Shown: piece by piece, positions 7,933-63,986 of the stretch
Position numbering within the stretch: position 1 is the stretch's first letter
How the letters are laid out: each line of letters begins with the position of its first letter
Assembly: GCA_041649155.1 (NCBI GenBank)
Contig: JBAZNP010000001.1
Span: 173,808-237,807, forward strand
Source: Patescibacteria group bacterium
GTDB lineage: Bacteria > Patescibacteriota > UBA1384 > XYA2-FULL-43-10 > 1-14-0-10-43-13
Direction of reading: 5' to 3'
Length of the DNA: 64,000 bases
Notes under the pieces: model-generated
Seen by the model: only the letters and a program-made list of their open reading frames with translations
What the model was told of the DNA's origin: nothing
Databases searched by the model: none
Translations under genes and position numbers: made by a program

Positions 7933-8027
7933 TTAATTAATATCCTTACTTTTTACTGCTTTCATAATAAGTAAAAATCAATCACAATACAAATTTTATT
8001 TCCCCCATCATCCTCGCTTCTCTCCTC

Positions 8028-8053: not shown

Positions 8054-8137
8054 AGAAAAATACTTGCATTATTTACATATTGAGAGTTTTTTGATAGAAT
8101 TTGACTGTCTTAATTCAAAAGATGTTTTTTAAATTAT

Positions 8138-9674: not shown

Positions 9675-9724
9675 AATAACCTTTCTTATTTATAATTATA
9701 CGTTACTTATAGTCAACAATAAAG

Positions 9725-10822: not shown

Positions 10823-11087
10823 TACTTTTTTCAATTACTTCTTTGGCTTTGTTAATTATTGCTTCTTCAATACTCTTGGAAGTTTCTTTATTGATGGGAT
10901 GGAATAAATTTATTTGCCTAATCCCAATTTGCTTTGTGGGGTAGGTTATCCGATAGCCAGAACCATCAGCTTTTACGTGTATCCCAATAGAACTTAAGTA
11001 GATGCTCTGATTAACTACCAAGCTCGCAAACGCAATTAGACCATCTTTTGCCTTAATGGGGATAATTTGTACTTCAGATATTTCCAT
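10785..11087 (-). CDS. spoVG: SpoVG-family nucleic-acid-binding protein
   Basis: MEISEVQIIPIKAKDGLIAFASLVVNQSIYLSSIGIHVKADG...FHPINKETSKSIEEAI aligns to the SpoVG core (MEVTDVRLRRV...AIASITLD...HDIRV...HPIN). Confidence 0.6.
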   Translation of the reverse strand: MEISEVQIIPIKAKDGLIAFASLVVNQSIYLSSIGIHVKADGSGYRITYPTKQIGIRQINLFHPINKETSKSIEEAIINKAKEVIEKSNDRYNSHNFEAE

Positions 11088-11316
11088 CGTTTACTCCTTC
11101 TTTTTCTTTCTGTCTTATTCGGAGGTCTATTTTCATAAGTAATTCAAAGAAGCCGACTAAATTGCTTTTCATATCTGCAATCTCATCAACAGAAAGAGCG
11201 TGGCCGTAAAGTTGTTCAAGGGGTGTAGATTGTTTTTTGGTTTCTTGCATAAAAAATATCCTCGAATAGAGGATACTTCTTAGATTATGGTCGCTACTAT
11301 GCTACTGAATGGTCTC

Positions 11317-11991
11317 TTATGGTCTCAAATGGTCTTTGTCTTTATTATTGACTCTTACCATTAAGCTCAAATTACCGCAGTTATTGACTAATTCGACAGG
11401 TTTTAATTTTGTTCTAGTCCTTATCTTCTTAATCCTGTCGTTTATAATAATATTATTTAGTGTTTTATCATTTGCGTCAGATTCGCTTAAACCGAGTTCG
11501 CTCAATAGCTCCTGCCTTGAAAGGTAACCGTTATTAAGAACTATCTTATTGAATATCTTGTAAAGATTTTTATCTGTTTGAAATTTGAACGGATTGTCCT
11601 TGATATAACCAATCCCAGAACTAGGACTATACCAGTTTGTAGTTTCTGGCTCGGCAATCTGTTCTTTCTTAGTTTTGCCTTTTCTTAATTGTTCAAGGGT
11701 TAGTCTTCGTATTTCCGCTTCCTCTCTCTGTTTTGTAAAATCAGGGGCAATAGCCGTATAAGTTACTGGCTCAGGGAAATTAAATTGGGGCATCTCTATT
11801 TTTCCAAGGCGTTTCAAGTTTTCTGCAGCTGAGGCTGCCGCATCTTTTACGGCAGACAACATAGTTCCAGAAATAATATCTTTTGGGATTATGCTGTTTG
11901 CTTTTACTAATTCGCCAAGACCTGAAAAATTATCCGAGGATTCGGGAAGATTATCTAGGTCTAAATCAAATTTTTTACTATTTTCGCTCAT
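11317..11991 (-). CDS. hypothetical protein
   Basis: 224-aa ORF on the island with no recognisable motif. Confidence 0.4.
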   Translation of the reverse strand: MSENSKKFDLDLDNLPESSDNFSGLGELVKANSIIPKDIISGTMLSAVKDAAASAAENLKRLGKIEMPQFNFPEPVTYTAIAPDFTKQREEAEIRRLTLEQLRKGKTKKEQIAEPETTNWYSPSSGIGYIKDNPFKFQTDKNLYKIFNKIVLNNGYLSRQELLSELGLSESDANDKTLNNIIINDRIKKIRTRTKLKPVELVNNCGNLSLMVRVNNKDKDHLRP

Positions 11992-12016
11992 ATTATTACT
12001 GCTTTAGGTTCGTTTT

Positions 12017-12898
12017 TTAGAACTTCATTTCAGGCACTTTTTTAGTTTTAATTCTATCATCCATAGTATCTATATTTTCTAGTAGTTGCTTATCAGGAAT
12101 TTTTATTGCTATCTCTTTTGATAAATTAAGGTATTTCCTAGCTTCTCGGTATCGGTACATTGTCCTCAGCTGATTGGCATAATTATAAAGAGCTAGTGCT
12201 TTTTCTGGCAAATCGTTATTTTCTTCTGAGATACTAATCGCTTTGAGAAAAAACTTATCAGCTTCTTTGTGTAGTAATTTCAATCCTTTTTTGTCTTTTC
12301 TATTATACAAGAGATGCTCTAATCTTTTCTCAATCAACCAATGTTGTAACCCATTCTTTCCAATTTTATTGTATCGTAATTCCATTGAGCGATAGCCGTA
12401 TGCTTGGCCAATCATTGAATAAACAGTTGACATAAGAGCAGAATCTTTTGTCTTATCTGCTATGCCCTCTGCTTCCTTGAGACTTTGTGTTGCATTTTCT
12501 TCTAGGTCACTTAGCTCTTGCTCAAGCGTTTCATATTCAACTTGTTCTCTTTCAAGCGAAAACTCAAACCATTCAGGCGAGAGTTTTATTCTTTTCATTC
12601 TGTCTATACTTCTTAGTTTCTTGTGAAGTGAGAGCAATCCTTTATAACACAAAGCGATAGCTTTTATATCCTTGTCTACCAATCTGTTGGACAAGCGTAT
12701 TGTTTCGTTGGTTATGACCAAAAGCTGTTCTGTATCTCTCACAGGGTCCAAAGAACGATTAAGCTCCAGACCACAATTTAATCGCATAACCACATTAGAA
12801 GAAGAATTAAAAATATCAAGAAACATCTTTGCTGCTTCCTCTTTATGCCCAACTACGATCATTGCTTCGGCTTGGCTAAATTTATCTTCTTCGGACAT
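12017..12898 (-). CDS. hypothetical protein (helical, possibly TPR-like)
   Basis: 293 aa. Overlaps the upstream gene by 17 nt, which suggests an operon. Confidence 0.45.
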   Translation of the reverse strand: MSEEDKFSQAEAMIVVGHKEEAAKMFLDIFNSSSNVVMRLNCGLELNRSLDPVRDTEQLLVITNETIRLSNRLVDKDIKAIALCYKGLLSLHKKLRSIDRMKRIKLSPEWFEFSLEREQVEYETLEQELSDLEENATQSLKEAEGIADKTKDSALMSTVYSMIGQAYGYRSMELRYNKIGKNGLQHWLIEKRLEHLLYNRKDKKGLKLLHKEADKFFLKAISISEENNDLPEKALALYNYANQLRTMYRYREARKYLNLSKEIAIKIPDKQLLENIDTMDDRIKTKKVPEMKF

Positions 12899-13829
12899 AT
12901 TTGTATCTTATACTTAATAAAAATATTCTAAGTTTATTGGGGATTACCTTTTTTAGAAAAAATTTGATATCCAGAGGGTATTTGCTAAACCAAATTCTTT
13001 TTAAGGCAGAGGAGCTGGACACAAAGTAGTTACGGCACGACCCTCTAATCATTCTGTTATCTTCCTGAACACGTTTATCTGAAATTTCAATGTATCCTCT
13101 TAAATCGTTCCAGCAGAAACAAGCCACAATATCAGTAGATAGCGGTATTGTCAGCTGGATATTCTTTTGACCCAAGCCATACCCATAAAATCTTTGCCAC
13201 TGCAAATCAGGATTAAACAAATGGCAAGGTTCATCAGAAGTTATGAACTTAGCTTTACCTTTTTTTGCTGAGCATAAGAAAGATAAGTTCATATGAACGA
13301 GCATTTCTGTTATATCTGGCAACAGATTTGACAAAGTTAACTTATGAGCGTCTGTCTTATAGCTTCTGAGTTCATTGGATTTCTTCGGAGGTATATTATG
13401 AGCAGCTTCCATCCGCTCTGTCATTTCAATAATCTGGTCTAAGTTCTGTTCAATGTTTTCCTTTTGACCTTTAGTTCTTAGCATCATTGCGGCAACAAAA
13501 GCGCACAATATAATATGTTCTTCATTAGACAAGGGTTTTCTTTTTGCAATCTTATCCTGAAAAATGAGGGCATACTTATCTTCCAGCTCAGAAAGAGAAA
13601 TTTCAATTGAGTAATCATAAACGTTATTGGCACAAGAAGCTTTAGGGGATTTTAACGAGTAAATATGTTTGCTAACAAAAGCTTTCTCAACTTTCTTGAG
13701 TTCTTTTGTCTTGCCGTCTTTGCTAAATATCCATATCCGCGGGTCGTTGCCCGACTGACTTGGGTCTGAAAATTGCTTAAGATAGCATTGAGAAATATAA
13801 TGTTGTCGCTTAGGATTACCCATAAGCAA
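12882..13829 (-). CDS. DUF4238-like protein
   Basis: The N-terminal RQHYISQCYLKQF motif resembles the DUF4238 signature (HYvPqfYLrxF). Confidence 0.4.
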   Translation of the reverse strand: MLMGNPKRQHYISQCYLKQFSDPSQSGNDPRIWIFSKDGKTKELKKVEKAFVSKHIYSLKSPKASCANNVYDYSIEISLSELEDKYALIFQDKIAKRKPLSNEEHIILCAFVAAMMLRTKGQKENIEQNLDQIIEMTERMEAAHNIPPKKSNELRSYKTDAHKLTLSNLLPDITEMLVHMNLSFLCSAKKGKAKFITSDEPCHLFNPDLQWQRFYGYGLGQKNIQLTIPLSTDIVACFCWNDLRGYIEISDKRVQEDNRMIRGSCRNYFVSSSSALKRIWFSKYPLDIKFFLKKVIPNKLRIFLLSIRYKYVRRR

Positions 13830-13883
13830 AATATAGTTCTATATGGGCAATAAATCAAGGAAAAGTGTGTTTAATCTAGGGGA

Positions 13884-14573
13884 TTAAAGGTCCAGTAACT
13901 TTTCACCAAGCGAAGTGCTTAATTGCCATTTCATACTGCCATTTGAGAACATTTCGTTTATCATACCTAGCTCGTGCTGGTCTGCCCATTCTTTTGGAAA
14001 GGGATAAGCATCTTGATTCTTGCTGACCAAGTCAACACAATAAGAAATATCAATACAATCAGTAGCTAATTTTGCTTGACCGTCTTTATCTCTTACTTTC
14101 CCATAATTGATATCCCAGTTCTTAAAATCCTCAATTTTTTCTTTATCATCAAAAAGACTGTAATAAGATTTCTTGTCTTTGGAATGTAACTCAACGGCCG
14201 CTTTTTTCAGCTCTTCATCGGTAGGTTTTTGCGAGAAAACAATTAGTTTCCAAGTCTTCCCAGATTTTTGATAGCTAGTGACTTCACTGTAGGAAATTGT
14301 TGGCGTTGGGTTAGCTTTTGGTGTTTCTGTTGTTTGTTGGGCGGATTGCGCAGGTTGTTCTTTCTTCTCGTTTGTTGAACTTTTATCTGAACTTGAAGAA
14401 GAACCTGCAAGAACAAAGAACACAATAATTACTGCTCCTGTGGCAATCCATTTATTTCTTTTGTTCCAATCTGTTTTTGCCCAAACATACCAAGTAAGAA
14501 AGAACGGCCAGATACATATTGCCAGTATTACTCCCCACCATTTTTTGTACCATACTTGTTTCTCTTCTTTCAT
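13884..14573 (-). CDS. membrane protein, paralog A1 of 22032..22673
   Basis: N-terminal TM segment (WWGVILAICIWPFFLTWYVWAK) followed by a Ser-rich linker. Clear similarity to the protein at 22032..22673. Confidence 0.5.
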   Translation of the reverse strand: MKEEKQVWYKKWWGVILAICIWPFFLTWYVWAKTDWNKRNKWIATGAVIIVFFVLAGSSSSSDKSSTNEKKEQPAQSAQQTTETPKANPTPTISYSEVTSYQKSGKTWKLIVFSQKPTDEELKKAAVELHSKDKKSYYSLFDDKEKIEDFKNWDINYGKVRDKDGQAKLATDCIDISYCVDLVSKNQDAYPFPKEWADQHELGMINEMFSNGSMKWQLSTSLGEKLLDL

Positions 14574-14575
14574 TT

Positions 14576-15163
14576 TTACCCTTTCTTGTTAATATTTTTT
14601 ATGCCCTTAAAATAAAGTTCAGCATCCTTTGAGCTTGGACCAGATATAATAAAATGTTCATCTTTAGCCATTTCGGGATATTTTATAGTTAATGAGTTTT
14701 TTAGCATTCCATTATTAAATAAAATATCAATCGCTTTCTCATATAAAACACTTATCATTGAATTTTGCCCGACAAATATAAATCGTTTGTTGGTCATAAT
14801 CATTTGACCTGCATCTATCCTCTCAACCGCTTCTACTGATTTTTCAGAGGTTTTACTTCCCGCTGTTACAGCTCCGCCTAAAGCACCGAGTGGACCGAGC
14901 AATAATCCTCCGACAACCGCTCTGCCAGCAACACCTTTTTTCTTTTCGGTGCTGATTGTATGACTTACAATTGCCATTCTTTGAGATGAGAAAGTAGCAT
15001 ATGCATTCTCATCTGGTTCAAGGTTAAAATCAGTTTTTATCGGTTGGATATGACCTTCCAATATCTCGTTTTTTCTATGCTCTTCCTCAGCTTTTTTCCT
15101 ACTTTGCTCATCTTGATAATTTTCATAACCTTTTTTGATTTTAGAAATCAGGTCAAAACCCAT
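14576..15163 (-). CDS. glycine-zipper TM plus bacterial-PH-like protein, paralog B1 of 21432..22010
   Basis: KKGVAGRAVVGGLLLGPLGALGGAVTAGSKT is identical in both paralogs. The C-terminus (TNKRFIFVG...) is bPH_2-like. Start set at MGFDLISKIKKGY by homology. Confidence 0.5.
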   Translation of the reverse strand: MGFDLISKIKKGYENYQDEQSRKKAEEEHRKNEILEGHIQPIKTDFNLEPDENAYATFSSQRMAIVSHTISTEKKKGVAGRAVVGGLLLGPLGALGGAVTAGSKTSEKSVEAVERIDAGQMIMTNKRFIFVGQNSMISVLYEKAIDILFNNGMLKNSLTIKYPEMAKDEHFIISGPSSKDAELYFKGIKNINKKG

Positions 15164-15250
15164 AACGAACCTCTTTCTATGATTACTATTTCTGATAGTG
15201 TGACTTATAATCCGTAGACCTATAGTCATAATCTACCACAAAATGGTAGT

Positions 15251-15478
15251 ATGATAAAAGAGCAAGAGCTAAAATCTATCACAAAGAAATTCGGCCAACG
15301 AATTAGAGATGAGCGTACGAAGCAAGGGATATCCCAAGAGGAGCTTGGTTTTAGGACTGGTTTGGATAGAACTTATATTTCAGGTATTGAAAGAGGCGAA
15401 AGAAATCCGTCACTTAAAAACATCGCCAAAATAGCCATTGCTCTAAAAATAAACTTGAACGAGCTCTTTACCCTCTAA
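15251..15478 (+). CDS. XRE-family HTH transcriptional regulator
   Basis: QEELGFRTGLDRTYISGIERGERNPSLKNIAKIAIAL is a classic Cro/C1-type HTH. Confidence 0.7.
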   Translation: MIKEQELKSITKKFGQRIRDERTKQGISQEELGFRTGLDRTYISGIERGERNPSLKNIAKIAIALKINLNELFTL

Positions 15479-15527
15479 CAGTCTTCAAAATTTGGCTTTA
15501 CTAAGCTTTTTTTGGTATACCAAGATT

Positions 15528-16094
15528 ATGATGAATTTCTCAAACAATGTTTTTGGACCGCAACCGCCTAGGTTCTTACCGATAAAACCGCCAAAGCGGA
15601 AAGTTTTTATTAGCTTTCATCACGCCAATGACCAACAAGCTTACAATATATTGAAGAGATTATTTTCTGATAAATACGAGGTGTTCGAGGACCATTCGTT
15701 AAACAACCAGCTAATCAATAGCCAAATAGCCGAAAATATTGACCGAGCAATACGAGAGCGTTTTATAAAAGGGTCTTCAATTACAATTGTTCTGTGCGGT
15801 GAAGAGACCCACAAAAGAAAATATGTTGATTGGGAGATAAACTCAACATTACTACACGAACACGCATTGCTCGGAATTGTTCTACCGACAGCTACAAAGA
15901 ATGTTCAAAACCAGCACATTGTTCCAGACAGATTGGCTGTGAACGCAAATTCTGGCTATGCCCACTGGGAGCTGTGGGATAATTGTGCTGGAAGTGCAGA
16001 CAATATAAATATGGCAATTGAAGTGGCATTGTTAAATAGTAAAAACAAAAAGCTACTAGACAATTCTCTTCCTAAGATGCATAGGAATTTATGA
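15528..16094 (+). CDS. TIR-like domain protein (DUF1863 / ThsB-like)
   Basis: KVFISFHHANDQQ and KYVDWEINS motifs typical of MTH538/TIR-like domains. Overlaps the downstream gene by ATGA. Confidence 0.55.
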   Translation: MMNFSNNVFGPQPPRFLPIKPPKRKVFISFHHANDQQAYNILKRLFSDKYEVFEDHSLNNQLINSQIAENIDRAIRERFIKGSSITIVLCGEETHKRKYVDWEINSTLLHEHALLGIVLPTATKNVQNQHIVPDRLAVNANSGYAHWELWDNCAGSADNINMAIEVALLNSKNKKLLDNSLPKMHRNL

Positions 16095-16516
16095 AGAACG
16101 ATGAAAAAATAAAGCATCTAGAGTTCATTCAAGGCGTCATCAACCGTTTGGCCAATAACTCCTTCTTGATTAAGGGATGGCTAATAACAATTACTTTAGC
16201 TGGACTGAGCTTTTATCTGACTCAAAAGAAGACCACCATTCTACCAATTCTATTGGCAACAGCAATTCTTTTTTGGTTTTTGGATTCTTATTATCTTAGA
16301 CAAGAGCGATTGTTTAGAAGATTGTATGCCGATGTGGTAAAAGGAAAAATAGAGCCAATCTTTGATATGGATGTTTCAAGATATCAAGACAAAATCCAAA
16401 ACTCATTTGCCACAATGTTCTCTTATCCCAATTGCTTTTTATATATTGCGATTATTGCACTAATATTGGTTCAAATTGTGCTGTCTCTCAAAATTGAGAT
16501 AAGCATAAAATTCTAA
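16091..16516 (+). CDS. small multi-TM protein, SLATT-like putative membrane effector
   Basis: 141 aa. An N-terminal helix followed by 2 to 3 hydrophobic TM segments. Translationally coupled to the TIR-like gene. Confidence 0.35.
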   Translation: MKNDEKIKHLEFIQGVINRLANNSFLIKGWLITITLAGLSFYLTQKKTTILPILLATAILFWFLDSYYLRQERLFRRLYADVVKGKIEPIFDMDVSRYQDKIQNSFATMFSYPNCFLYIAIIALILVQIVLSLKIEISIKF

Positions 16517-18159
16517 CGAGTTAAAGTTAATTCGGGTATTCTCTTGAGAAAAGCATACTCGGACAGAACTTTAATTTCGTTATTTAATTGCAGAATTGAA
16601 TCATAGTATTCAGTTCTGAACTTATACACCAAGGGGAGCCATAGTTGCGATTTTATAAAATGAGCTTGTGATTCACCTTGTTGAGTCTCAACTTGTGGTA
16701 AAGAAAGCAGTGTTTCAAACAATTCAGTTGGCACTGCTTTTTTGATTTTCCTATTTTCGACTATTATCTCGTTCCAAAATAGGTCAATATACGCTCTTTT
16801 TCTTTTTGGACTTGCCGTCAAATATGCCTTGAATACATCCTCTGCTAAAAACATTAGCTCTTCAAACACCCGTGTGTTATCAGCTCTATTTACTTGAAGC
16901 TTGCCTAGTTTCTTTTCTACAACTTTCAGCTCGTTCTTTATTCTTGTGGTTTGTCGGATATAAGTTTCACTACCAATTACTCTGTTGCCAAGGTCTTCTT
17001 CATAGTTAGATCTCTGCTTTTCTAGCTTGTTTTGCTCGGACAACAAGTTGTTTCTAGCAATATCAATATGATTATGATTTTGCGATAGATATTTTTTTGC
17101 CTGAAAGACTATTTTTCCAATCAGCCGTTTGGGTAATTGAAGATTTTTGAATAACTCTTCTACCATTTTCTCCAAGTCCTTAGTGCTTATGTTCTGTAAT
17201 TTATTTGAGTGAACAGAGCTACTTGCGGGACAATGATAATACGCTTTTTCTTTAGCGCCGTGATGCTCAGCGGTGTAATGCCGACCACATTTCCCACATT
17301 TTATATAACCGCTTAAAAGAAATTGATGTTTTCTTTTTCTGTCGACATATTTGTTGTGTTGCTCTAAAATTTCATTGCAAGTTTCAAAAGTTGTTTGATT
17401 TATGATTGGCTCGTGCTTTCCTGGATAAATTTCACCTTTGAATTCAATTTTTCCAGTATAAAAAACTTCTTTAAGAATGTTGATCATCGCTTGCTTCCCA
17501 ATTTTGTTGCCAGTTCGTGATCTTAAGCCTTCCTCAAACATAATGTCGCACAGATTTTCAACAGAATATGATCCGGTAGCAAATAGCTTAAATGCTTTTT
17601 CAAGTAATGGTGCGACTACCTTATCTAGTGCTATAATATTTCTCTCAAAACCACTCGTTACTGTTTCATTAACCACATTCTTATAACCTATTCGTGCAGG
17701 ACCAGCCCACCAACCTGCTTGAATCTTCTCCATCATTGAAATACTAGTTTTTCTGCCTGTTATCTTTGGGGTTAGTGCATTAACTGCAGCCAAAATTGAA
17801 TCCATAAATCTACCCTCGGGTGAGTCATCTAACATAGGCTGATTTATTGATCTGATCTTCGTTCCAGATTTTAGTAGCATTGATTTAACCGCGAAATGTA
17901 GAGACTCATCTCTAGCCAATCGGTCAGTATCAATAACGTAAACGTAATCAACAGAGTTATTCTTACAATAAGCAATCATTTCTTGCAGTCCTGGGCGGTT
18001 CGGATTGCTTCCAGATAAACCTTCATCTTGAAAAACTTCAAGCAAGTTGCCTCCGTCTTCGGCAATAGCTATCTTTCCTTTGCTCATTTGCGTTGGGATA
18101 GAGCAATCCTTTTTGGCCTGTTCGTCAGTGCTTACACGTCCATAAATTACACAATTCAT
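16513..18159 (-). CDS. large serine recombinase (second copy)
   Basis: IYGRVSTDEQ with the catalytic Ser, VIDTDRLARDE, a recombinase domain, and a Zn-ribbon Cys cluster (CGKCGRHY...HCPA). Confidence 0.85.
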   Translation of the reverse strand: MNCVIYGRVSTDEQAKKDCSIPTQMSKGKIAIAEDGGNLLEVFQDEGLSGSNPNRPGLQEMIAYCKNNSVDYVYVIDTDRLARDESLHFAVKSMLLKSGTKIRSINQPMLDDSPEGRFMDSILAAVNALTPKITGRKTSISMMEKIQAGWWAGPARIGYKNVVNETVTSGFERNIIALDKVVAPLLEKAFKLFATGSYSVENLCDIMFEEGLRSRTGNKIGKQAMINILKEVFYTGKIEFKGEIYPGKHEPIINQTTFETCNEILEQHNKYVDRKRKHQFLLSGYIKCGKCGRHYTAEHHGAKEKAYYHCPASSSVHSNKLQNISTKDLEKMVEELFKNLQLPKRLIGKIVFQAKKYLSQNHNHIDIARNNLLSEQNKLEKQRSNYEEDLGNRVIGSETYIRQTTRIKNELKVVEKKLGKLQVNRADNTRVFEELMFLAEDVFKAYLTASPKRKRAYIDLFWNEIIVENRKIKKAVPTELFETLLSLPQVETQQGESQAHFIKSQLWLPLVYKFRTEYYDSILQLNNEIKVLSEYAFLKRIPELTLTR

Positions 18160-18178
18160 ATTTATCCTTTACTTAAAA

Positions 18179-18276
18179 GTGAGGTAACAGCATAGAAGTT
18201 TCTAGTTACGACACAAGAAACGGCTGTTACCTCACCATTATAAAAAACTCCCATATCGCTATCTTGTGTCGTAACT
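18179..18276. repeat. interleaved pair of inverted repeats (A-B-A'-B') just upstream of the recombinase start
   Basis: A is GTGAGGTAACAGC at 18179 and A' at 18223. B is AGTTACGACACAAG at 18204 and B' at 18263. Both stems are perfect, 13 and 14 bp. Confidence 0.6.
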
Positions 18277-18310
18277 TTATTATAATTTTTTTGGCTGAAA
18301 AAGACAAATT

Positions 18311-18601
18311 TCATATCATTTTGTGATAACGAGATTTCAGGTACGTTAGATTGTTACACTTTCTACACGATAACTTGTTTGCTACCGGAGGCAAATACAA
18401 GGTTCCGACCCTCCTTCCGCAAGAAGGACAAATGAACCAAAGTCGCTCGCCTCCAAAATTACAAGCTGATGATGTCAAAGATATCTTGAGTCCCATCGCT
18501 TCAATCTTTGATTTTAGTCTGAGTGCAATAAGCTCTCTTTTTGATTCCCGGCATAGTTCGTTAATGTTTATTTTTTGACATTGTTCTGTTAAAAATTTCA
18601 T
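18311..18601 (-). CDS. small Zn-ribbon protein
   Basis: CPSCGRR...CRKCNN is a four-Cys ribbon. Confidence 0.4.
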   Translation of the reverse strand: MKFLTEQCQKININELCRESKRELIALRLKSKIEAMGLKISLTSSACNFGGERLWFICPSCGRRVGTLYLPPVANKLSCRKCNNLTYLKSRYHKMI

Positions 18602-18627
18602 AAAAAATTCTCCGAAATCATTTGGCC

Positions 18628-19266
18628 TTAATTATTTTCACTTTGGTTATCGTTGCCATCGTAATTATTTATTACTTGCTGGTTGTTCGCCAGAAAAGCA
18701 TTTTTAGTAGATATCTTTACATTTAGTTTTGGTTGCTTGAGCTCTTTTAGTAAAATAATACTTGCGTTAAGCTGCCTCTCTGCTTTTTCTTTGTTTTTGC
18801 TTAATTCTTTCATATAATTTATCTTTAATTGGTCCATCGTAAAGGAACCGTCTTTTTTTACAAGACATCGGTTGTATACCATATCACACCTCATCGTCTG
18901 CCAATAATTAGCCACTATTCTATCAACTAACATTAGCTCTATCCCGGTTTTACAATCAAATTCTTTGGCTAGATCATTTCTCATTTTCTTTAACGAATCA
19001 TCGTATTCTTCAAAATCTATGTGTCCAACCCAATGTCCATTTTGTAGACCATTAAGCTTAATGATCTGCACTCCTAAGTCACTCATTCTTTTTTCTTCTG
19101 CTGAGGTCCTTTTGGGTTTTTCTAATAGTGAGAAGAATTCTTTTTGTCGAGAATCATTGTGAGAGCTAACGCCCTCCGTTAAAAACTGCACCACTATATC
19201 TCTGCGCTCTGCCTTTTGGCCCTCGGTTAATTCTGATGGTTTTTTATTTTTCATTTTTATCCTCAC
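18628..19266 (-). CDS. hypothetical protein
   Basis: 212-aa ORF on the island. Confidence 0.4.
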   Translation of the reverse strand: MRIKMKNKKPSELTEGQKAERRDIVVQFLTEGVSSHNDSRQKEFFSLLEKPKRTSAEEKRMSDLGVQIIKLNGLQNGHWVGHIDFEEYDDSLKKMRNDLAKEFDCKTGIELMLVDRIVANYWQTMRCDMVYNRCLVKKDGSFTMDQLKINYMKELSKNKEKAERQLNASIILLKELKQPKLNVKISTKNAFLANNQQVINNYDGNDNQSENN

Positions 19267-19399
19267 AATTTTTATTAGATAAATTTATATTCTCAAAAAT
19301 TTGATCAACAAAAATCTTTGCTAGTCGAGCAGCAAACAAATCTTCAATTTGCTCTGCAGTAAGATTTTTAATTTGTTGATTTTTTGATTTCATTATTAT

Positions 19400-19903
19400 T
19401 TACTTAACATTCTTATTAGCCCACTTGCTCATTTCTTCCGCTTCGTGTTTATCCATTCCTTGCTTCTTCTTTGTTTTCAGAGTTTTGTTTTCTTGTTTTA
19501 TCTTTTCTATTTCCTGTTTCTGGCTAGTGTATACATCGGTCCCTACACCGGTGTTAAAATAGCTTCTAATGCCATCGCCAACCTTGGACCATTCTTCTTC
19601 CCAGGCTTTCCAATTAGACTCACTCTTCCAGACTTTACAGTTTTTGAAAGCGTTTACGACAAAAACCCATCCTCGGCAAAACAGCACTTTTTTGTTTTGC
19701 GAGAGTTCTTCTTTTGCAATTTCAAAGTCCCCATCTGATAGCCCAGTTTCAAAAATGATTTTCTTGTCAGTTAGCTGAAAAACACCTGTCATATTCATCG
19801 GCAGACAGGTCATAAGATAGATAAAGACATATCTTGATTGCCAAGTTGCATTTTGAACGAAGTCATCATCCCAGACCCTTGCTTGTATTTGTCTTGCTTT
19901 CAT
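19400..19903 (-). CDS. hypothetical protein
   Basis: 167-aa ORF. Confidence 0.4.
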   Translation of the reverse strand: MKARQIQARVWDDDFVQNATWQSRYVFIYLMTCLPMNMTGVFQLTDKKIIFETGLSDGDFEIAKEELSQNKKVLFCRGWVFVVNAFKNCKVWKSESNWKAWEEEWSKVGDGIRSYFNTGVGTDVYTSQKQEIEKIKQENKTLKTKKKQGMDKHEAEEMSKWANKNVK

Positions 19904-19938
19904 CTTTCGCCTTAATCTTAATATTCATATTTTTGTGG

Positions 19939-20187
19939 CTAGCTGTTATGCAGCCTTGATTTCAAAGTTCGCTGAGCGGAATAATATTGAGTCGTTATAA
20001 GTTTTAATCGTCCAGAAAAATGAGCCTCTGCAGCTGTCTCAATTCCGTTTTTTCTCTGAAAAACAAACGCTACCCGACCATCGCCAGAAGTTCGGTCAAG
20101 AGATAAGAGATTATAGCCGAGAGCCATTAGAGCGGAGGCATTCGCAAAGTCACAAGTTTGATAAAAGTCGCTTTCAGAAATGTTCAT
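19939..20187 (-). CDS. small hypothetical protein
   Basis: 82-aa ORF. Weak evidence. Confidence 0.25.
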   Translation of the reverse strand: MNISESDFYQTCDFANASALMALGYNLLSLDRTSGDGRVAFVFQRKNGIETAAEAHFSGRLKLITTQYYSAQRTLKSRLHNS

Positions 20188-20276
20188 CTTAATCCTTTCA
20201 ATAAATAAAAAACGAGGTTAATTACTATACCTCGATTTTATAGAAAGGATTGTTGAGTCAATTTTGAAAAAGTTGA

Positions 20277-21110
20277 CTAAAAGTTACGAATTACTGATTT
20301 GCTTCTCCAACTAAATAGTTCGTCGTTAGTATTTAATTTCTTTTTAATTTGATTATTTATATCATTCATTGAATCATACACTTTGCGCCACTGGTTCTTT
20401 TCGGGCTCGGAATTACCAGACATTTCCGTGTAGATTTCATCCCAACAAATAGCTTTTCCTGCTGGCTGATTAAACATCATACGACAGAGATAGTGGTTGT
20501 TTTTGTGAAGCGGCATTGCACATTTGGTTTCGCCAATAATTACTTCTGCCGAATCGTCGTTATAATCAATTTGAAAATTAGAAAGTGATATTTTCTTAGG
20601 TTTCATACGTTTTTCTCGTTCTTGTATAGTCTTATCAACGTTTTCTTCCATCTTTGCAAAACCTTGTTTGCAAATCTTTGAATGCTCGTAACAAAGTTCT
20701 TGGATTGAATCGGCAATTTCTTGTTCTTCAGGTAAAATTCCTACTGTGTATCCATTGATAATAAATTCTTTATCTACTAGTCCAAGAAATGATAATAAAT
20801 TTGTTTGCTCCGTTTCCCAATAGCATTCATATTCTAGAACATCGCCAAACAGCGACTCTGGTAATTGCGGGCAATCCTTGGCCAATTCCTTAAAGTCTTC
20901 TCTTGAGAGAAAATTATCCAACCCTAGCTTTAGATTGGCATATGCATAATTTAATGCTCCGTCAGGATAATAGACCATTTCGCCACAAACACTCTCTAAG
21001 ATCTGGTAAATAAGTGAGATATAAAAACGGAAATGCCTAATAGCGAATTTATATTCTACTGCCTGTAGAAATGCAAGTTTATCTTTTATGTCAAAATCTT
21101 CAATATTCAT
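20277..21110 (-). CDS. hypothetical protein
   Basis: 277-aa ORF. Confidence 0.45.
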   Translation of the reverse strand: MNIEDFDIKDKLAFLQAVEYKFAIRHFRFYISLIYQILESVCGEMVYYPDGALNYAYANLKLGLDNFLSREDFKELAKDCPQLPESLFGDVLEYECYWETEQTNLLSFLGLVDKEFIINGYTVGILPEEQEIADSIQELCYEHSKICKQGFAKMEENVDKTIQEREKRMKPKKISLSNFQIDYNDDSAEVIIGETKCAMPLHKNNHYLCRMMFNQPAGKAICWDEIYTEMSGNSEPEKNQWRKVYDSMNDINNQIKKKLNTNDELFSWRSKSVIRNF

Positions 21111-21286
21111 CTTTATCTTTATACTTATACTTACTTAAACCAACGTAACAAATTAGAACTGATTACTCAATTGTCCATTGTGTTTTTGATAATTTTGAGG
21201 CATAATTCAAATTGTCAGAGCGATCTGATAAACACAATCTAGTTGCACCTAACCCTTACCAGCAATGATAAGGTATGGTGCCAAAT

Positions 21287-21400
21287 CCTCGGTTAAAAAC
21301 AATGACGGTCTAGCGACCGCACTTTTTAACCGAGGTCTGTGCTCGAAAGGGCGCAGGATAGTCCCGAAAGGGGCTGTCGTGGTTCGCTAGGCCATTTTTG
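21287..21400. other. structured intergenic element: 13-bp-stem hairpin plus two GAAA-tetraloop hairpins
   Basis: CCTCGGTTAAAAA..(23 nt)..TTTTTAACCGAGG, then GCTC-GAAA-GGGC and GTCCC-GAAA-GGGGC. Lies about 30 bp upstream of the paralog B2 start. Confidence 0.3.
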
Positions 21401-21431
21401 TATTTTATTAAATATTAACCAAGGACTAAGA

Positions 21432-22010
21432 ATGGGAATGCTTGCAAATATCAAAAAATCTTATGGGGATTATCAGGACAAAAAAGCAAAGGAAAAAGCT
21501 GAGGAGGAAGCAAGACAGAAATCTATTTCACAGGGAGAGATTGAGCCCATTAAAACTGATCTGAATCTTGAAGATAGAGAAATCGCCTATGCAGCGTTCT
21601 CTGCCAACAGGATGGCGCTGGTGGCTAAAACTGCCAGTAAAACGCAAAAGAAAGGTGTTGCAGGCAGAGCAGTAGTCGGAGGTCTGTTGCTGGGACCATT
21701 GGGGGCCTTGGGAGGTGCTGTAACCGCCGGAAGTAAGACAACCGAAAAAACATTTGAAGTTGAAGAAAAAATTGACAACGGTACTATAACTTTCACAAAT
21801 AAACGCTTTGTATTTATAGGGCGCGATATTATGGCAAATATCCCTTACGACAAAGTGGTTGATATGAAATTTGAGCAAAAGATTTTTGGTACCGATCTTC
21901 ACGTTAGATATCCCGAAATGTTAAAGGGAGAATATTTTCATTTATCAGGAGAAGATTCAAAAATTGCTGAACTATGGTTTAAGGGCATACAAAAAATAAG
22001 CAAGCGGTAG
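21432..22010 (+). CDS. glycine-zipper TM plus bPH-like protein, paralog B2
   Basis: Start at MGMLANIKK with an AAGGA ribosome-binding site. Paralog of 14576..15163. Confidence 0.5.
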   Translation: MGMLANIKKSYGDYQDKKAKEKAEEEARQKSISQGEIEPIKTDLNLEDREIAYAAFSANRMALVAKTASKTQKKGVAGRAVVGGLLLGPLGALGGAVTAGSKTTEKTFEVEEKIDNGTITFTNKRFVFIGRDIMANIPYDKVVDMKFEQKIFGTDLHVRYPEMLKGEYFHLSGEDSKIAELWFKGIQKISKR

Positions 22011-41427: not shown

Positions 41428-42596
41428 TAACTATGTATTCGTTTGATTAATGGATTTATTTGTGTGATTATTTCATACCAAGAAGTATCTGCCAGCAAAG
41501 CTAATTCATACGCGGTTACTTCTTCTTTTCCATCCTTGCCCAATAGTACAACTTCATCACAGATCTTTATATTTTTAACGTCAGTAACGTCAATAACAAT
41601 CATGTCCATTGAAATCCGTCCCAGTATTTTCGCTCTTTTGCCTTTAATTAGCACATGACCAATGCTTGATAAGTCTCTTTTATAGCCATGCCAGTATCCA
41701 ATAGGTAAAATGGCAACCTTAGAGTCTCTATCTAGATTTTCCGTGAAATCGTAACCAATACTTTCACCTTTTTTGATGTATTTTATCTCGGAAACAATCG
41801 TTTTCCAACATAATGCGGTTTTTAGTTTGATTTTTTCTTCATAACAGGCTTTCGTTTCGTATGATGGCCAAAGCCCCATCATTCCGATTCCAATTCTAAC
41901 CATATCGAAATGCGCTTTTGGAAAAACAATTGTTCCGGACGTTGCAGCAGCATGCTTAATTGGTTTAGAACCAAAAGACTTTATAGTCTCTACTGCTTTT
42001 TCAAACTGCTCAATCTGCTTGTTTGTATCTGCTGGAAATGATGGATTTTTTGCAGCTGCAAAATGGGTATATATTCCTTCGAATTTAATTTGGGGCAAAT
42101 TCTTTTTGATAAATAAAGCAACTTTCTTAACTTCATCTAACTGGAATCCCTGCCGATGCATACCTGTATCGATCTTTATATGAATATTTAGTTCGTTGCC
42201 TTTCCCCTTTTTGTCATTTCGAGCGATATCACCAGAGGCGAAGAGTCGAGAAATCTTTTCCAATTGCTCGAAACTTGAAATTGTAATACTAATGCCGTTT
42301 TTTCTTGCTTCATCAAAATTCTCAGCCATTGTATAGCCCAAAACCAGTATTGGCTTTTTTATTCCGTTTTTTCTAAGTGTCAGCGCTTCTGTAATAGAAT
42401 CAACGCCAAAAAAATCAACGCCAAACTTTTGCATTAGTAATGGATAACCAGCAAACCCATGACCGTAGGCGTTTGATTTGACAACCGCCATCAACCGACA
42501 TTTTTTCGAAATCAAACCACGAAAAGCATCGTAATTATTTTTCAATGCTTTCTTATCAACCTCAACCCAAGTTCTAAGACTAATGTTTTTGTTCAT
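41427..42596 (-). CDS. alr: alanine racemase
   Basis: PLP-binding AVVKSNAYGHG motif. About 390 aa. Confidence 0.85.
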   Translation of the reverse strand: MNKNISLRTWVEVDKKALKNNYDAFRGLISKKCRLMAVVKSNAYGHGFAGYPLLMQKFGVDFFGVDSITEALTLRKNGIKKPILVLGYTMAENFDEARKNGISITISSFEQLEKISRLFASGDIARNDKKGKGNELNIHIKIDTGMHRQGFQLDEVKKVALFIKKNLPQIKFEGIYTHFAAAKNPSFPADTNKQIEQFEKAVETIKSFGSKPIKHAAATSGTIVFPKAHFDMVRIGIGMMGLWPSYETKACYEEKIKLKTALCWKTIVSEIKYIKKGESIGYDFTENLDRDSKVAILPIGYWHGYKRDLSSIGHVLIKGKRAKILGRISMDMIVIDVTDVKNIKICDEVVLLGKDGKEEVTAYELALLADTSWYEIITQINPLIKRIHS

Positions 42597-45190: not shown

Positions 45191-45216
45191 AGATCTCCGT
45201 CTTCACGAGGATGACA
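45191..45216. repeat. TGTCATCC-family hairpin element, inverted orientation
   Basis: The reverse complement TGTCATCCTCGTGAAGACGGAGATCT matches the family termini. Confidence 0.5.
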
Positions 45217-47576: not shown

Positions 47577-47637
47577 CCCCGTTTGATGCCCTGTTTGATA
47601 TTGCAAAGCAATTATCTAACAGGGGCTATCTAACTGG
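47577..47637. repeat. conserved leader hairpin, copy 2 (internally duplicated)
   Basis: CCCCGTTTGATG-CCCTGTTTGATATTGCAAAGCAATTATCTAACAGGGG-CTATCTAACTGG. Immediately 5' of the pps GGAGGG ribosome-binding site. Confidence 0.6.
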
Positions 47638-52809: not shown

Positions 52810-54762
52810 TTACACTTCAATAATTACTGGTATTACCATTGGTCTGCGCTCGGTTTCACGAAAAAGGAATTCGCCCATGTCATCGCGAAGCTTTTGTTTT
52901 GCCAAGCTCCAGTCAGTCTTTGGACCCCTTCGATCAGCGCCGTGCTTTGCGAAGATTTTCTTTATTTCAGCTCTGGACTTATGAACGAGCTGCTCATTTT
53001 CGCGCATGTAAATGAAGCCGCGCGAAATAATATCCGGAGAAGTAGCAACTTCCCCTGTTTCATGATCAACCGTAACGATAATGACAAATATACCGTCCTG
53101 AGCCATTGCTTTTCGATCACGCAGAACGATGTTTCCAACATCGCCAACGCCAAGACCATCAACCATAACATATGAGGCAGGAACTCTTTTATTTGTTACT
53201 TCTCCTCTTCCTTTACCGAATTCAATTACCTGACCATCATCGGCAACAAGACAATGGTCTTCATCAACTATTCCCATATCCTGAGCAATCTGGCAATGCA
53301 GCATCAATCTGTGTCTTTCACCGTGGACCGGCATCAAATACTGAGGTTTAATCAAAGCAAGCATCAACTTAATGTCTTCCTGATTAGCGTGACCGGAAGT
53401 ATGAACATCCATCAATTTTTGATAAACAACTTTTGCTCCAGCTCTAAATAGGTTGTCCATTAAGCTCGAGACACTTCTCTCGTTACCTGGAATTGGCGAA
53501 GATGAAAGAATAACTAGATCGCCTCTCTTAATTTTGATCTGACGATGTTCTCCAAGAGCAATTCTTGTTAAAGCAGCATTATCCTCCCCCTGTGATCCAG
53601 TACATACTATGACCACTTTGTTGTCGGGATATTTACCAATATCTTTAACATCGATAATTGTATCTTTTGGCACAATCAATGCTTCAAGGGAGATAGAAAT
53701 ATCAACCGTTGAAAGCATGCTTCTTCCAACAAAAGCAACTTTTCGATGTAGTTTTTCTGCCGTATTTAGAACCTGCTGAATTCTGGAAATCAAAGTTGAG
53801 AAAGTTGAGATGATTAATCTGTTGTTTGCTCTTTCCATAATTTTGAAAAGAGAGTCTTCGATTTCTTTTTCTGAGATTGAGTTTCCCGGTCGTTCGATAT
53901 TTGTAGAATCGGAAAGCAGAAGCAATGGCTTTCTTGATCCCAGCATTGCTAATGCCGAAAAATCAGCTGGTCTTCCATCGGCTGGTGTATGATCGAACTT
54001 CCAGTCCCCTGTTGCAACTAATAATCCTTCTGGTGTTTCGATGGCAAAACCCATTGTTTGAGGAATACTGTGAGTCAGACGAAAAGAGGTAACTTTAAAG
54101 CAACCCAATTGAAGAGTGGTCTCGCCGGGGTTTATTACTTCCAACCGAGCACCTCTGTCCAAGCCAAACTCCTCAAGTTTACCTTTAATTAACCCCAATG
54201 ATAGAGGCGATGAGTATATGATCGGAGAACCGATTTTCTCAAAAACGTAAGGTATGGCACCAATGTGATCAAGGTGACCATGTGTAATTAAAAGACCTTT
54301 AATTTTTCTTTTATTTTGTTCCAGATATGAAACGTCAGGGATTACATAATCCACCCCTGGCATACTTTCGTCCGGAAACATAAAGCCCATATCTATTACA
54401 ATGATGTCATCTTTATATTCAATGACTGTACAGTTTTTTCCACCAGTTTCTTCAACACCGCCCAAAGGGATGATGCGAAGCTTTGGCTCATGAAACATCT
54501 TCGATGTATTATTTGTATCAATTTGTTGCGCAGTATAGCGAGGCTCTTCATGCCTCGTTGGCTGCTGTTTAAAAGGCTGACTTCGATATTTGTTATAATT
54601 CGAGGTTTTCTTTTCGCCTTTATCTTTAGACACTGAATCTAAAAACTTATTCCCGACAAGACTAGTCTTAGTTGGTGATTTTCGATTCTGTGTATTTATT
54701 TCTTTTTTTTCTAAATTATTTTTTTCTTCTCCGCCAGAGGCGGACTTTATTTCATTTTGCAT
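52810..54762 (-). CDS. rnj: ribonuclease J (metallo-beta-lactamase / beta-CASP)
   Basis: LLITHGHLDHIGAIPY motif, beta-CASP domain, and a long low-complexity N-terminal extension. Confidence 0.85.
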   Translation of the reverse strand: MQNEIKSASGGEEKNNLEKKEINTQNRKSPTKTSLVGNKFLDSVSKDKGEKKTSNYNKYRSQPFKQQPTRHEEPRYTAQQIDTNNTSKMFHEPKLRIIPLGGVEETGGKNCTVIEYKDDIIVIDMGFMFPDESMPGVDYVIPDVSYLEQNKRKIKGLLITHGHLDHIGAIPYVFEKIGSPIIYSSPLSLGLIKGKLEEFGLDRGARLEVINPGETTLQLGCFKVTSFRLTHSIPQTMGFAIETPEGLLVATGDWKFDHTPADGRPADFSALAMLGSRKPLLLLSDSTNIERPGNSISEKEIEDSLFKIMERANNRLIISTFSTLISRIQQVLNTAEKLHRKVAFVGRSMLSTVDISISLEALIVPKDTIIDVKDIGKYPDNKVVIVCTGSQGEDNAALTRIALGEHRQIKIKRGDLVILSSSPIPGNERSVSSLMDNLFRAGAKVVYQKLMDVHTSGHANQEDIKLMLALIKPQYLMPVHGERHRLMLHCQIAQDMGIVDEDHCLVADDGQVIEFGKGRGEVTNKRVPASYVMVDGLGVGDVGNIVLRDRKAMAQDGIFVIIVTVDHETGEVATSPDIISRGFIYMRENEQLVHKSRAEIKKIFAKHGADRRGPKTDWSLAKQKLRDDMGEFLFRETERRPMVIPVIIEV

Positions 54763-54775
54763 TTTTTTCCTTGTT

Positions 54776-54845
54776 TGTCATTCCAGACTTGATCTGGAAT
54801 CTATATAAATAGTAACTGGATCCCGTATCAAGTACAGGATGACAG
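54776..54845. repeat. pair of TGTCATYCC hairpin elements in inverted orientation
   Basis: TGTCATTCCAGACTTGATCTGGAATC has a perfect 8-bp stem. The reverse complement of the second copy is CTGTCATCCTGTACTTGATACGGGATCC. Confidence 0.6.
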
Positions 54846-54887
54846 ACTATGCTGTCAAATTAATTTTTGTTGAGAAATTTTATTTAT

Positions 54888-54922
54888 CCTGTTTGATGCT
54901 GCAAAGCAGTTATCTAATCAGG
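54888..54922. repeat. conserved leader hairpin, copy 3
   Basis: CCTGTTTGATGCTGCAAAGCAGTTATCTAATCAGG. Confidence 0.6.
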
Positions 54923-54931
54923 ATTCTTTCT

Positions 54932-55594
54932 CTATATTAGTTTCTGTTGCTCAAATTCCCTTTTATTAGAATCCGAGGCGTCTTTTTCTTTAATTTTCTT
55001 AATTATTATTGGTATCTTTTTAAAATCGGTTATTAATGTTTCCCGAAGGGCTCCATTGTGAAGTGCTGCTGCTGGATGATAAAGTGGCAAGTAAACTCTT
55101 CCGTCCGGTCTTTTTAACGCTTTTCCATGCAATTTACTGATCCCTCCCGCTCCAGGTAAGTAAGTAGCAGTTGAATGGCGGCCCAAACAAACTATTAACT
55201 TTGGATTTAGCGCTTTAAATTGTCTTTCTAAATATGGTCTGCAGGCTGACTTTTCCGCATCTTCCGGATCTCTGTTTCCAGGTGGACGGCATTTTACTGT
55301 ATTTGTAATGAATATGTCGCCACGGCTCAGGCCAATTACTCCCAGCATTTCATCTAAGAATTTTCCTGCTTGTCCGCAAAAAGGAATTCCTTTTTGATCT
55401 TCCGTTGCGCCAGGTGCCTCGCCGATAAACATAATTTCAGCAGAAGAGCTTCCTTCACCAGGAACTGCAGTTATCCTGCTTTTTGAAAGAGGACATTTTG
55501 TACATACTAAAACTTCTTCCCTGACTTTACCAAGTTCTGTTATAGTTTTATCATTTTTTTCATCAGTAGAAATTCTACTCTCATCCAAATCCAT
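54932..55594 (-). CDS. udg: uracil-DNA glycosylase, family 4
   Basis: Family-4 motifs: CxxC Fe-S cluster ligands, GEAPG and GKFL. Confidence 0.85.
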   Translation of the reverse strand: MDLDESRISTDEKNDKTITELGKVREEVLVCTKCPLSKSRITAVPGEGSSSAEIMFIGEAPGATEDQKGIPFCGQAGKFLDEMLGVIGLSRGDIFITNTVKCRPPGNRDPEDAEKSACRPYLERQFKALNPKLIVCLGRHSTATYLPGAGGISKLHGKALKRPDGRVYLPLYHPAAALHNGALRETLITDFKKIPIIIKKIKEKDASDSNKREFEQQKLI

Positions 55595-60936: not shown

Positions 60937-61058
60937 TTTTCATCGGCCAGTAAGCAAAGTAATTAGCCTTGCGCTGGTCTCCCTAATTAATTATTTCTTA
61001 TTTAGTATACAATATTTTAGCCCAAATAACAATAGTTATGCGCCAATACTCGCTGCTT

Positions 61059-61184
61059 TGTCATTTCGACCCCGTGAGCTTTGTCGAACGGTGGACCTGC
61101 CTGCCGGCAGGCAGGGAAATCTTATGATTAGATAATTTAAAGATCCCTCCACTCCTGCCAGCAGGCAGATCGGTCGGGATGACA
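61059..61184. repeat. composite palindromic repeat region
   Basis: A TGTCATTTCGACC-type element, the perfect 20-bp palindrome CCTGCCTGCCGGCAGGCAGG at 61096..61115, and an inverted TGTCATCCCGACC...GGAGGGATCT element at 61141..61184. Confidence 0.6.
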
Positions 61185-63958: not shown

Positions 63959-63986
63959 TGTCATCCCGACCAACGTGGAGGGATCT
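63959..63986. repeat. TGTCATCCCGACC...GGAGGGATCT hairpin element
   Basis: TGTCATCCCGACCAACGTGGAGGGATCT. Confidence 0.6.

Follow-up and report, generated by a model that had tools for sequence, protein, structure and literature searches.

Head-to-head TGTC-tagged hairpins in a Patescibacteria contig, probable members of the CGTC REP/Ssn-related motif family

A family of short tagged hairpins recurs in a 64,000-nucleotide stretch (hereafter the window) of contig JBAZNP010000001.1 from a Patescibacteria group bacterium (assembly GCA_041649155.1, positions 173,808 to 237,807), where one pair of them had been flagged at positions 54776-54845. These elements probably are of a known kind, namely the CGTC/TGTC-tagged hairpin family, which includes the CGTC repetitive extragenic palindromic (REP) sequences, dRS3 or NTS in Neisseria and the Ssn-related motifs (SRM), and which is found here in a genome of the Candidate Phyla Radiation (CPR). 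The partner enzyme class appears to be the GIY-YIG nuclease Ssn and not a tyrosine transposase, whereby we infer that an Ssn recognises the variants seen here. The elements were filed as divergent family members because of their tag, the base of their stem, the C at their 3' side, their dimer geometry and the ssn loci of CPR genomes. Taken alone, the assignment is an ordinary one, as the repeat family was described between 2000 and 2013 and its partner nuclease was characterised in 2025. It does, however, place the Ssn/SRM system in the CPR, with its tiny genomes and tight spacers, and one copy of the element provides clean natural evidence that the dimer is a discrete inserted unit, since it interrupts nrdG in frame by exactly one dimer.

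The region examined comprised 79.8 kb of the same contig, that is, the 64-kb window together with 8.9 kb before and 6.9 kb after it (flanks from ENA ERZ27247363, k141_656675), which corresponds to about 13% of the 603-kb contig. In the window, the pattern TGTCATYCC-N(4-34)-GGRATC yielded five exact matches compared to 0.01 expected from 100 dinucleotide shuffles, and TGTCATYCC alone was found six times compared to 0.89 expected from shuffles. A tolerant scan of the 79.8 kb led to 18 convincing half-sites, consisting of eight dimers, one intact single copy (8028) and one degenerate single copy (45192-45216). All eight dimers are convergent with their tags outward and measure 69-126 nt from tag to tag. 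Four of them touch the window (593/672, 54776/54844, 61059/61184, and 63959 with a half-site 55 nt past the window end), whereas four further dimers lie in the contig flanks. The half-sites of the window, including one doubtful candidate, are as follows.

54776-54801, plus strand: half-site of the flagged dimer, TGTCATTCCAGACTTGATCTGGAATC, with TGTC tag, 8-bp stem ATTCCAGA/TCTGGAAT, 5-nt loop CTTGA and then C; DNA fold -6.4 kcal/mol, z -3.56, with 0 of 200 shuffles folding equally well; identical to the half-site at 64631, which is 631 nt past the window end.
54819-54844, minus strand: partner half-site of the flagged dimer, TGTCATCCTGTACTTGATACGGGATC, with 8 pairs including one G-T; DNA fold -4.1 kcal/mol, z -1.65.
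593-619, plus strand: short 'B' half-site inside nrdG, TGTC ATCCC GA CCG AAG CGG A GGGAT C.
629-672, minus strand: long 'A' half-site and partner of 593, TGTC ATTTC GAC...GAGAAAT C; agrees with 61053-61090 at 37 of 38 positions.
8028-8052, plus strand: single canonical half-site, TGTC ATCCCCGC GAAG GCGGGGAT C, then CAG; DNA fold -9.7 kcal/mol, z -4.66; located between a mannose-phosphate-isomerase-like gene and tRNA-Asn.
45192-45216, minus strand: degenerate single half-site, TGTCATCCTCGTGAAGACGGAGATC, which starts with TGTCATCCT and ends with GGAGATC, with a C/A mismatch and a G-T pair; folds no better than shuffles; located between convergent genes.
61059-61121, plus strand: long 'A' half-site, which starts with TGTCATTTC and ends with GGGAAATC and whose interior contains an additional GC-rich mini-palindrome, CCTGCCTGCCGGCAGGCAGG; DNA fold -13.2 kcal/mol, z -2.35.
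61142-61184, minus strand: 'B' half-site and partner of 61059, with the same mini-palindrome in its loop; DNA fold -9.3 kcal/mol, z -2.15.
63959-63985, plus strand: 'B' half-site, whose 'A' partner lies just past the window end on the minus strand with its tag at 64055.
42212-42255, plus strand: doubtful, possibly decayed 'A' half-site inside alr, with ends that match TGTCATTTCGA and GAGAAATC; no fold, z +1.46.

A sequence-only reading of the window had reported at least eight copies of a hairpin element in intergenic spacers, often as inverted pairs. An element is indeed present at all eight positions it gave, of which those at 45191, 54818 and 61141 are minus-strand copies with their tags at 45216, 54844 and 61184. 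Its description that all copies start with TGTCATYCC and end with GGRATC applies approximately, with 61059 and 45192-45216 deviating from it. Pairing turned out to be the rule, with 16 of the 18 half-sites in tags-outward (head-to-head) dimers, and the minus-strand partner of 593 at 629-672 had been overlooked. The intergenic location fits the other copies but not 593-672, which lies in frame inside nrdG. The flagged dimer 54776/54844 has a 17-nt spacer between its halves and lies in the gap bounded by the stop of UDG at 54932 and the start of RNase J at 54762, with both genes on the minus strand. The dimer 61059/61184 separates the end of the DHH-phosphoesterase gene from the promoter region of rpsO.

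All half-sites share the same ground plan. The tag is unpaired throughout and reads TGTC in 17 half-sites and CGTC in one, and in all 18 the GTC stands directly before the palindrome and a C directly after it. The first stem pair is A-T and the second T-A without exception (18/18 each). The third pair is C-G in 10 and T-A in 8 half-sites, the fourth C-G in 13 and T-A in 4 with one mismatch, and the fifth C-G in 16 and G-T in 2, while deeper positions vary by subfamily. The tail after the stem reads CTT in nine, CCA in five, CTA in three and CTC in one half-site. Two kinds of hairpin can be distinguished. The short kind consists of 8 contiguous pairs and a 4-5 nt loop, as in ATCCCCGC GAAG GCGGGGAT or ATTCCAGA CTTGA TCTGGAAT; stems of 8-9 bp with such a loop occur in six copies (8028, 54776, 54844, 64631 and both halves of a dimer 3.2 kb before the window), and the half-site at 64542 combines an 8-bp stem with a long loop. 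In the composite kind, to which 10 of the 18 half-sites belong, a 5-bp outer stem is followed by a tandem G-A/A-G mismatch and then by a variable inner hairpin (ATCCC GA CCG AAG CGG A GGGAT) or a long interior, which reaches 37-58 nt in the long forms. Most copies fold as drawn when treated as single-stranded DNA, and clearly beyond shuffles at 8028 (z -4.7), 54776 (z -3.6) and 66962 (z -3.4). The stems were said to differ and yet to stay complementary, which is borne out by pairs 3 and 4, where C-G and T-A are exchanged on both sides across the 18 half-sites. The compensatory variation is thus real, but it is found largely between subfamilies that each propagate.

Two further features concern the limits and the interior of the repeated unit. 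A CTCACTCRC-like sequence stands 3-8 nt 5' of the tag in about half of the half-sites, among them 8028, 61059, 63959 and flank copies, and it occurs on both sides of dimers. Since this sequence precedes TGTC so often, the repeated unit or a preferred target may extend about 12-15 nt past the tag, into the region where Ssn cutting has been reported. Furthermore, a GC-rich mini-palindrome, CTGCCTGC(C/T)GGCAGG(C)AG, is present within each half of the 61059-61184 dimer (61095-61114 and 61150-61166) and also in a paralogous half-site 6.9 kb before the window start, which gives the impression of a third small element that enters hairpin loops.

The dimer 593-672 lies inside nrdG (305-1081, minus strand) and keeps its reading frame. 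The protein was compared by profile coordinates with the NCBIfam model TIGR02495 (NrdG2) as a whole, as a split and as a deleted sequence. NrdG residues 3-221 span profile positions 2-192, whereby the N-terminal part stops at profile position 133 and the C-terminal part resumes at position 141, 35 residues on. Deletion of residues 137-163 (nt 593-673, 81 nt) raised the score from 194.2 to 203.4 bits and made the match collinear. Because this deletion restores a collinear match, the extra 27 amino acids of NrdG correspond precisely to a single dimer, measured from tag to tag. When PDB sequences were searched with NrdG, no homolog aligned across the insertion. For the doubtful copy in alr, comparison of Alr with NCBIfam TIGR00492 pointed to about 10-15 extra residues at 42212-42255, and deleting 16 residues lowered the score slightly.

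Related genomes were examined for the same loci. The closest PNPase neighbourhoods among 185,579 species genomes come from metagenome-assembled genomes of Candidatus Berkelbacteria, with 76, 71, 69 and 68% identity, and the gene order LiaF-PspC-DHH-rpsO-pnp...UDG-RNaseJ-FtsK is the same in the Berkelbacteria relatives. These relatives are almost free of the elements; only the closest one (L132) has a TGTC dimer, which is likewise located upstream of rpsO. The UDG/RNase J spacer, which is 170 bp long in the window, is about 45 bp long and empty in another relative (L135). The near absence from relatives and the empty spacer show that the elements are lineage-specific additions. Altogether, the dimers behave as inserted DNA, because there is an exact insertion in nrdG, near-identical copies occur at distant loci, the B+A heterodimers can be aligned (five dimers of this composition align tag to tag, end to end) and the corresponding spacer is empty in a relative. 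As a separate observation, two relatives carry another short repeat (..CACAGATTT.. / ..AAATCTGTG..) where the window has TGTC dimers (L134 4340-4480; L135 8700-8790 and 9280-9330).

The anatomy of the elements corresponds to that of the CGTC-tagged REPs defined by Di Nocera, De Gregorio and Rocco (2013; BMC Genomics 14:522; PMC3733652). These have an unpaired CGTC tag, which is TGTC in many and also CCTC, stems of 8-9 bp whose first bases are nearly always AT, loops of 4-5 nt and a short tail resembling CCA; head-to-head dimers dominate and intragenic copies occur (PMC3733652). Members of this group are Neisseria dRS3 (CGTC-1) and the Rickettsia conorii elements RPE-4 and RPE-6 (PMC3733652). 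dRS3 has the form ATTCCC-N8-GGGAAT, is the boundary repeat of NIME arrays and serves as a phage integration target (PMC1797815). Common to the CGTC REPs and the elements described here are the unpaired tag, the A-T/T-A start of the stem, a tail that begins with C (CCA/CCAG in 5 of 18 half-sites), head-to-head dimers with 10-40 nt spacers, frequent heterodimers, in-frame intragenic copies and the lack of an associated tyrosine transposase (here among the called genes of the 79.8 kb). The likeness to REP sequences or bacterial interspersed mosaic elements suggested by the sequence-only reading therefore holds at the level of the published CGTC-tagged superfamily, including its head-to-head dimers and intragenic copies. 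Differences are that the host is a Berkelbacteria-like CPR bacterium, whereas the paper covers five phyla and mostly alpha-proteobacteria, and that the tails are mostly CTT or CTA and not CCA. The exact dRS3 form was found in none of the 18 half-sites, the nearest being ATTCCCGACCGGGTCGGGAAT (N9), 3.2 kb before the window. In-frame carriage in a housekeeping gene with the open reading frame kept, as in nrdG with its 27 additional amino acids, is also known from the Rickettsia palindromic elements (Ogata et al., 2000); in contrast, RPE-1 measures about 100-150 bp and is unrelated in sequence, only RPE-4 and RPE-6 being in the CGTC family.

The link from this repeat family to a nuclease has been published. 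Chenal et al. (2025; Nat Commun 16:2388; PMC11893778) introduced the names NTS for the 28-nt Neisseria element, SRM for its relatives and ssnA (cd10448) for the gene. Ssn is a single-domain GIY-YIG nuclease of about 95 amino acids; SsnA binds the hairpin solely as single-stranded DNA and on one strand only, does not bind RNA and cuts a few nucleotides upstream of the tag; binding depends most on the C that follows the palindrome, and cleavage on the three nucleotides in front of the palindrome (PMC11893778). The features that are invariant here, the GTC of the tag and the 3' C, are thus the positions that govern SsnA cleavage and binding (PMC11893778). In the same study, 71% of the Ssn homologs had the motif nearby and 42% had it on both sides, and the Neisseria system was found to reduce transformation by NTS-flanked DNA (PMC11893778). 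Besides the GTC 5' and the C 3' of the palindrome, the present elements share with the Ssn/NTS system the directional hairpin and the tags-outward arrangement that is seen around ssn genes. They differ from NTS and SRM in their AT-richer stems and in that gene-less dimers are the main form and not large clusters around surface-protein genes; CPR or Patescibacteria go unmentioned in the main text of Chenal et al. (2025).

Two small GIY-YIG genes are bracketed by tagged hairpins in viral loci. A single-protein search for GIY-YIG relatives in viral contigs gave only four close relatives. As an independent test, 80 metagenome loci were selected only for a GIY-YIG gene encoding about 95 amino acids, with an alignment as query. 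In this alignment of Ssn-like proteins (A1), Y7, Y18 and E65 are invariant, with the same spacing as Y6, Y17 and E64, which were mutated in SsnA. A tagged hairpin was found within 200 bp of the ssn-like gene in 55 of the 80 loci and on both sides of it in 36, and hairpin density beside the gene was 3.5 and 4.7 per kb compared to 0.25 per kb farther off. Placement is highly regular: a hairpin on the plus strand precedes the start codon by 32-47 nt, and one on the minus strand follows the stop codon at a distance of 4-19 nt; therefore, the ssn gene sits as the 'spacer' of a tags-outward dimer. The association of gene and repeat, which had already been published (PMC11893778), was thus recovered independently. 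Many of the Ssn-like proteins are located on contigs of 0.5-2 kb, the pattern that would result if metagenome assemblies broke at the gene and the repeats around it. A literature search gave nothing direct on COG2827 or on GIY-YIG proteins in connection with REPINs or REP-associated tyrosine transposases (RAYT).

For the CPR, the connection could be followed more closely. A low-GC metagenome locus (L216) contains ssn followed by dimers that are nearly identical in style to the flagged one, and the homologs of its Ssn-like protein include entries from Candidatus Berkelbacteria Licking1014_85 and Candidatus Daviesbacteria. In Berkelbacteria GCA_007376495.1 (L292) and Daviesbacteria GCA_030648645.1 (L294), ssn is bracketed by TGTC hairpins of the same subtypes as here, and gene-less dimers with CTTGA or CTAAT loops and CTAT tails are found nearby, the CTTGA loops and CTAT tails being as in the window. 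Thus, the Ssn/SRM system exists in this clade.

Taken together, these data point to a scheme in which each half-site would be a directional single-strand DNA signal, composed of the unpaired (T/C)GTC, the A-T/T-A start of the stem and the C after the stem. A cognate Ssn, presumably encoded elsewhere in this genome, would bind and cut these variants, and the dimers would be spread by Ssn itself or by host replication or repair acting on Ssn nicks. Because ssn elsewhere sits in a tags-outward dimer of the same geometry, the dimers look like gene-less derivatives of an SRM-ssn-SRM unit; comparable to miniature inverted-repeat transposable elements (MITE) or REPINs, they would have spread through the genome, and one landed in frame in nrdG. 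The REPIN-RAYT systems (Bertels and Rainey, 2011; Nunvar, 2010) are alike in that two inverted tagged hairpins with a spacer form a non-autonomous unit, which is related to the repeats bracketing one small nuclease or transposase gene. They differ in the tag, which is GTAG there and TGTC here, and in the enzyme, which is a Y1 HUH transposase there and a GIY-YIG nuclease in the SRM family.

It could further be that the gene-less, tags-outward SRM dimer is itself the moving unit, REPIN-like and mobilised in trans by Ssn, and that it is active in the CPR and can land in frame in essential genes. We regard this extension as tentative and somewhat doubtful. It is supported by the nrdG gene, whose extra 81 nt are one dimer, and by the five alignable B+A copies, and the nrdG insertion is relevant to whether SRM-ssn-SRM should be seen as a present or former mobile element. 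If the extension is true, Ssn would represent a new mechanistic class among transposase-like enzymes, that is, a hairpin-recognising GIY-YIG nuclease acting on single-stranded DNA.

Several findings weigh against an assignment to the Ssn/SRM system and against dimer mobility. For REPINs, mobility has been shown by population sequencing, whereas it is so far hypothetical for SRM dimers. No GIY-YIG or Ssn gene was detected in the 79.8 kb, neither in the Pfam lists of the called genes nor by phmmer up to an E value of 10. Compared to the 8-9 bp stems and 4-5 nt loops of the CGTC REPs, the 5-bp outer stem of the composite half-sites (10/18), with its inner hairpin or an interior of 37-58 nt, is a departure. 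The published SRM search sequence, HGTCWYN(0-2)YYVSBRHN(0-5)WNVSBRGN(0-2)RNCYNB, is matched only by 8028, that is, by one of the 18 half-sites (shuffle mean 0.07), whereas the other 17 fail it on AT-rich stem positions or long interiors. If the half-sites do belong to the family, this would mean that pattern-based genome surveys undercount it. Finally, SsnA activity was abolished when the sequence was altered and the hairpin was kept (PMC11893778), and recognition of these variants by any Ssn is therefore presumptive.

A rather unlikely alternative is that the dimers are orphan relics, that is, that an SRM-ssn-SRM unit was once present, the nuclease was lost and the dimers are now inert and decaying. 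This would agree with the lack of ssn in the 79.8 kb, with degenerate copies such as 45192-45216 and possibly 42212-42255, and with the report that 19% of the genomes with more than 200 SRMs have no Ssn homolog (PMC11893778). However, identical or near-identical copies occur at distant loci, and tag and stem base are intact in 16 of the 18 half-sites, which argues for recent spread or maintained constraint. Moreover, the 79.8 kb cover only about 13% of the contig, and related CPR genomes do encode ssn.

It is also unlikely that the hairpins act mainly as RNA, for example as terminators, 3'-end stabilisers or processing sites, with selection on RNA structure. Of the nine intergenic sites, seven are flanked by co-directional or convergent genes and just one occupies a divergent spacer, a placement bias in which Di Nocera et al. 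saw a possible sign of transcription (PMC3733652), and two stems use G-T pairs. Such a role would be compatible with one at the DNA level as well. In contrast, a terminator scan of 52-64 kb classified none of the half-sites as terminator-like, the stems being short and lacking a properly placed T-run. No Rfam family was matched in the whole window at gathering thresholds, and a permissive search of 54600-55000 gave only chance matches to miRNA precursors far below threshold. Furthermore, the dimers put one hairpin on each strand whatever the gene direction, and one dimer is translated within nrdG. The conserved unpaired tag and the 3' C are positions that serve Ssn on DNA, and RNA is not bound by SsnA. 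Given the bias towards co-directional and convergent placement, an RNA-level role may exist as a secondary effect.

The sequence-only reading had proposed a RAYT or IS200-type transposase as the partner. REP or REPIN elements mobilised by a RAYT or IS200/IS605-type Y1 (HUH) transposase would indeed appear as short tagged hairpins in inverted pairs with spacers and with occasional copies in genes, and an IS200-type Y1_Tnp gene is located 2 kb from ssn in the Daviesbacteria locus. Nevertheless, such an origin is very improbable: no match to Y1_Tnp (PF01797) was present among the called genes of the 79.8 kb, the tag is TGTC and the GTAG tag of REPIN-RAYT systems was found in none of the 18 half-sites, Di Nocera et al. 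found no RAYT or IS200 gene flanked by CGTC repeats in species carrying them (PMC3733652), and the gene that is flanked by the repeats in 45-69% of cases is the GIY-YIG gene ssn. Thus, the observation as such is confirmed and its REP-like interpretation is partly right, while the RAYT/IS200 part is unsupported. The accompanying rule that only these copies and no associated transposase gene would favour a regulatory motif is unfit as worded, as the 79.8 kb contain no partner gene and yet the family spans many phyla and behaves like inserted DNA. The least probable explanation is that the hairpins are recombinase targets. In its favour, phage integration at dRS3 is documented (PMC1797815), and the 8028 copy borders an island beside tRNA-Asn that contains two large serine recombinases. 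Against it, neither a recombinase nor an insertion is found near any of the remaining 17 half-sites, the genes called in the 79.8 kb include no IS110-family member, and being a target leaves the spread of the repeats unexplained.

The tagged-hairpin family is not restricted to cellular genomes. A paired-pattern scan of viral contigs gave matches in at least 120 contigs. The matches listed are mostly perfect 7-9 bp stems, such as TGTC ATTCCCGC GAAG GCGGGAAT CCAG, and many of them are convergent pairs. One phage-like contig (IMGVR_UViG_3300036760_001528, positions 1-11682; L083) contains about 20 half-sites, with a pair in nearly every intergenic gap. This family can colonise phages densely, or phages may make use of it. 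With regard to a recurrent gene between neighbouring hairpins, the 120 viral contigs listed contained only the two GIY-YIG genes and otherwise ordinary phage genes.

The window contains several other features, among them a second, unrelated hairpin family, CCYGTTTGAT-nnn-GCAAAGC-nnn-TATCTAAC(A/T)GGG, with three matches compared to none in shuffles:

5355-5384: copy of the second hairpin family.
47577-47636: copy of the second hairpin family, with an inner copy at 47590-47619.
54888-54917: copy of the second hairpin family.

The inner stem of this family covaries (AGC/GGCT, ATT/AAT, GCT/AGT), and one copy is nested in the loop of another. All three occupy gaps between co-directional minus-strand genes, after the stop codon of one gene and before the Shine-Dalgarno sequence of the next, and one of them is 44 nt away from the flagged dimer. 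About 10 tandem copies of the 14-nt unit TAAGTAATAAGTTG form an array at 3296-3449, directly upstream of the nrdD start. The region from about 8184 to 22000, which adjoins tRNA-Asn (8138-8213), is prophage- or island-like and contains serine recombinases (8184-9674 and 16513-18159), a ThsB/TIR-like gene, a helix-turn-helix regulator and many genes without a family; tRNA-Asn separates this island from the single hairpin at 8028. Within the island, positions 21246-21378 on the plus strand match the LOOT RNA (RF03000) with 69.2 bits against a gathering score of 46.4. Finally, GGGAGACCAGCGCAAGG is conserved upstream of rpsO in the window (60937-61000, minus strand) and in the relative L135 (9220-9390), whose PNPase is 71% identical, and it may be an rpsO leader.

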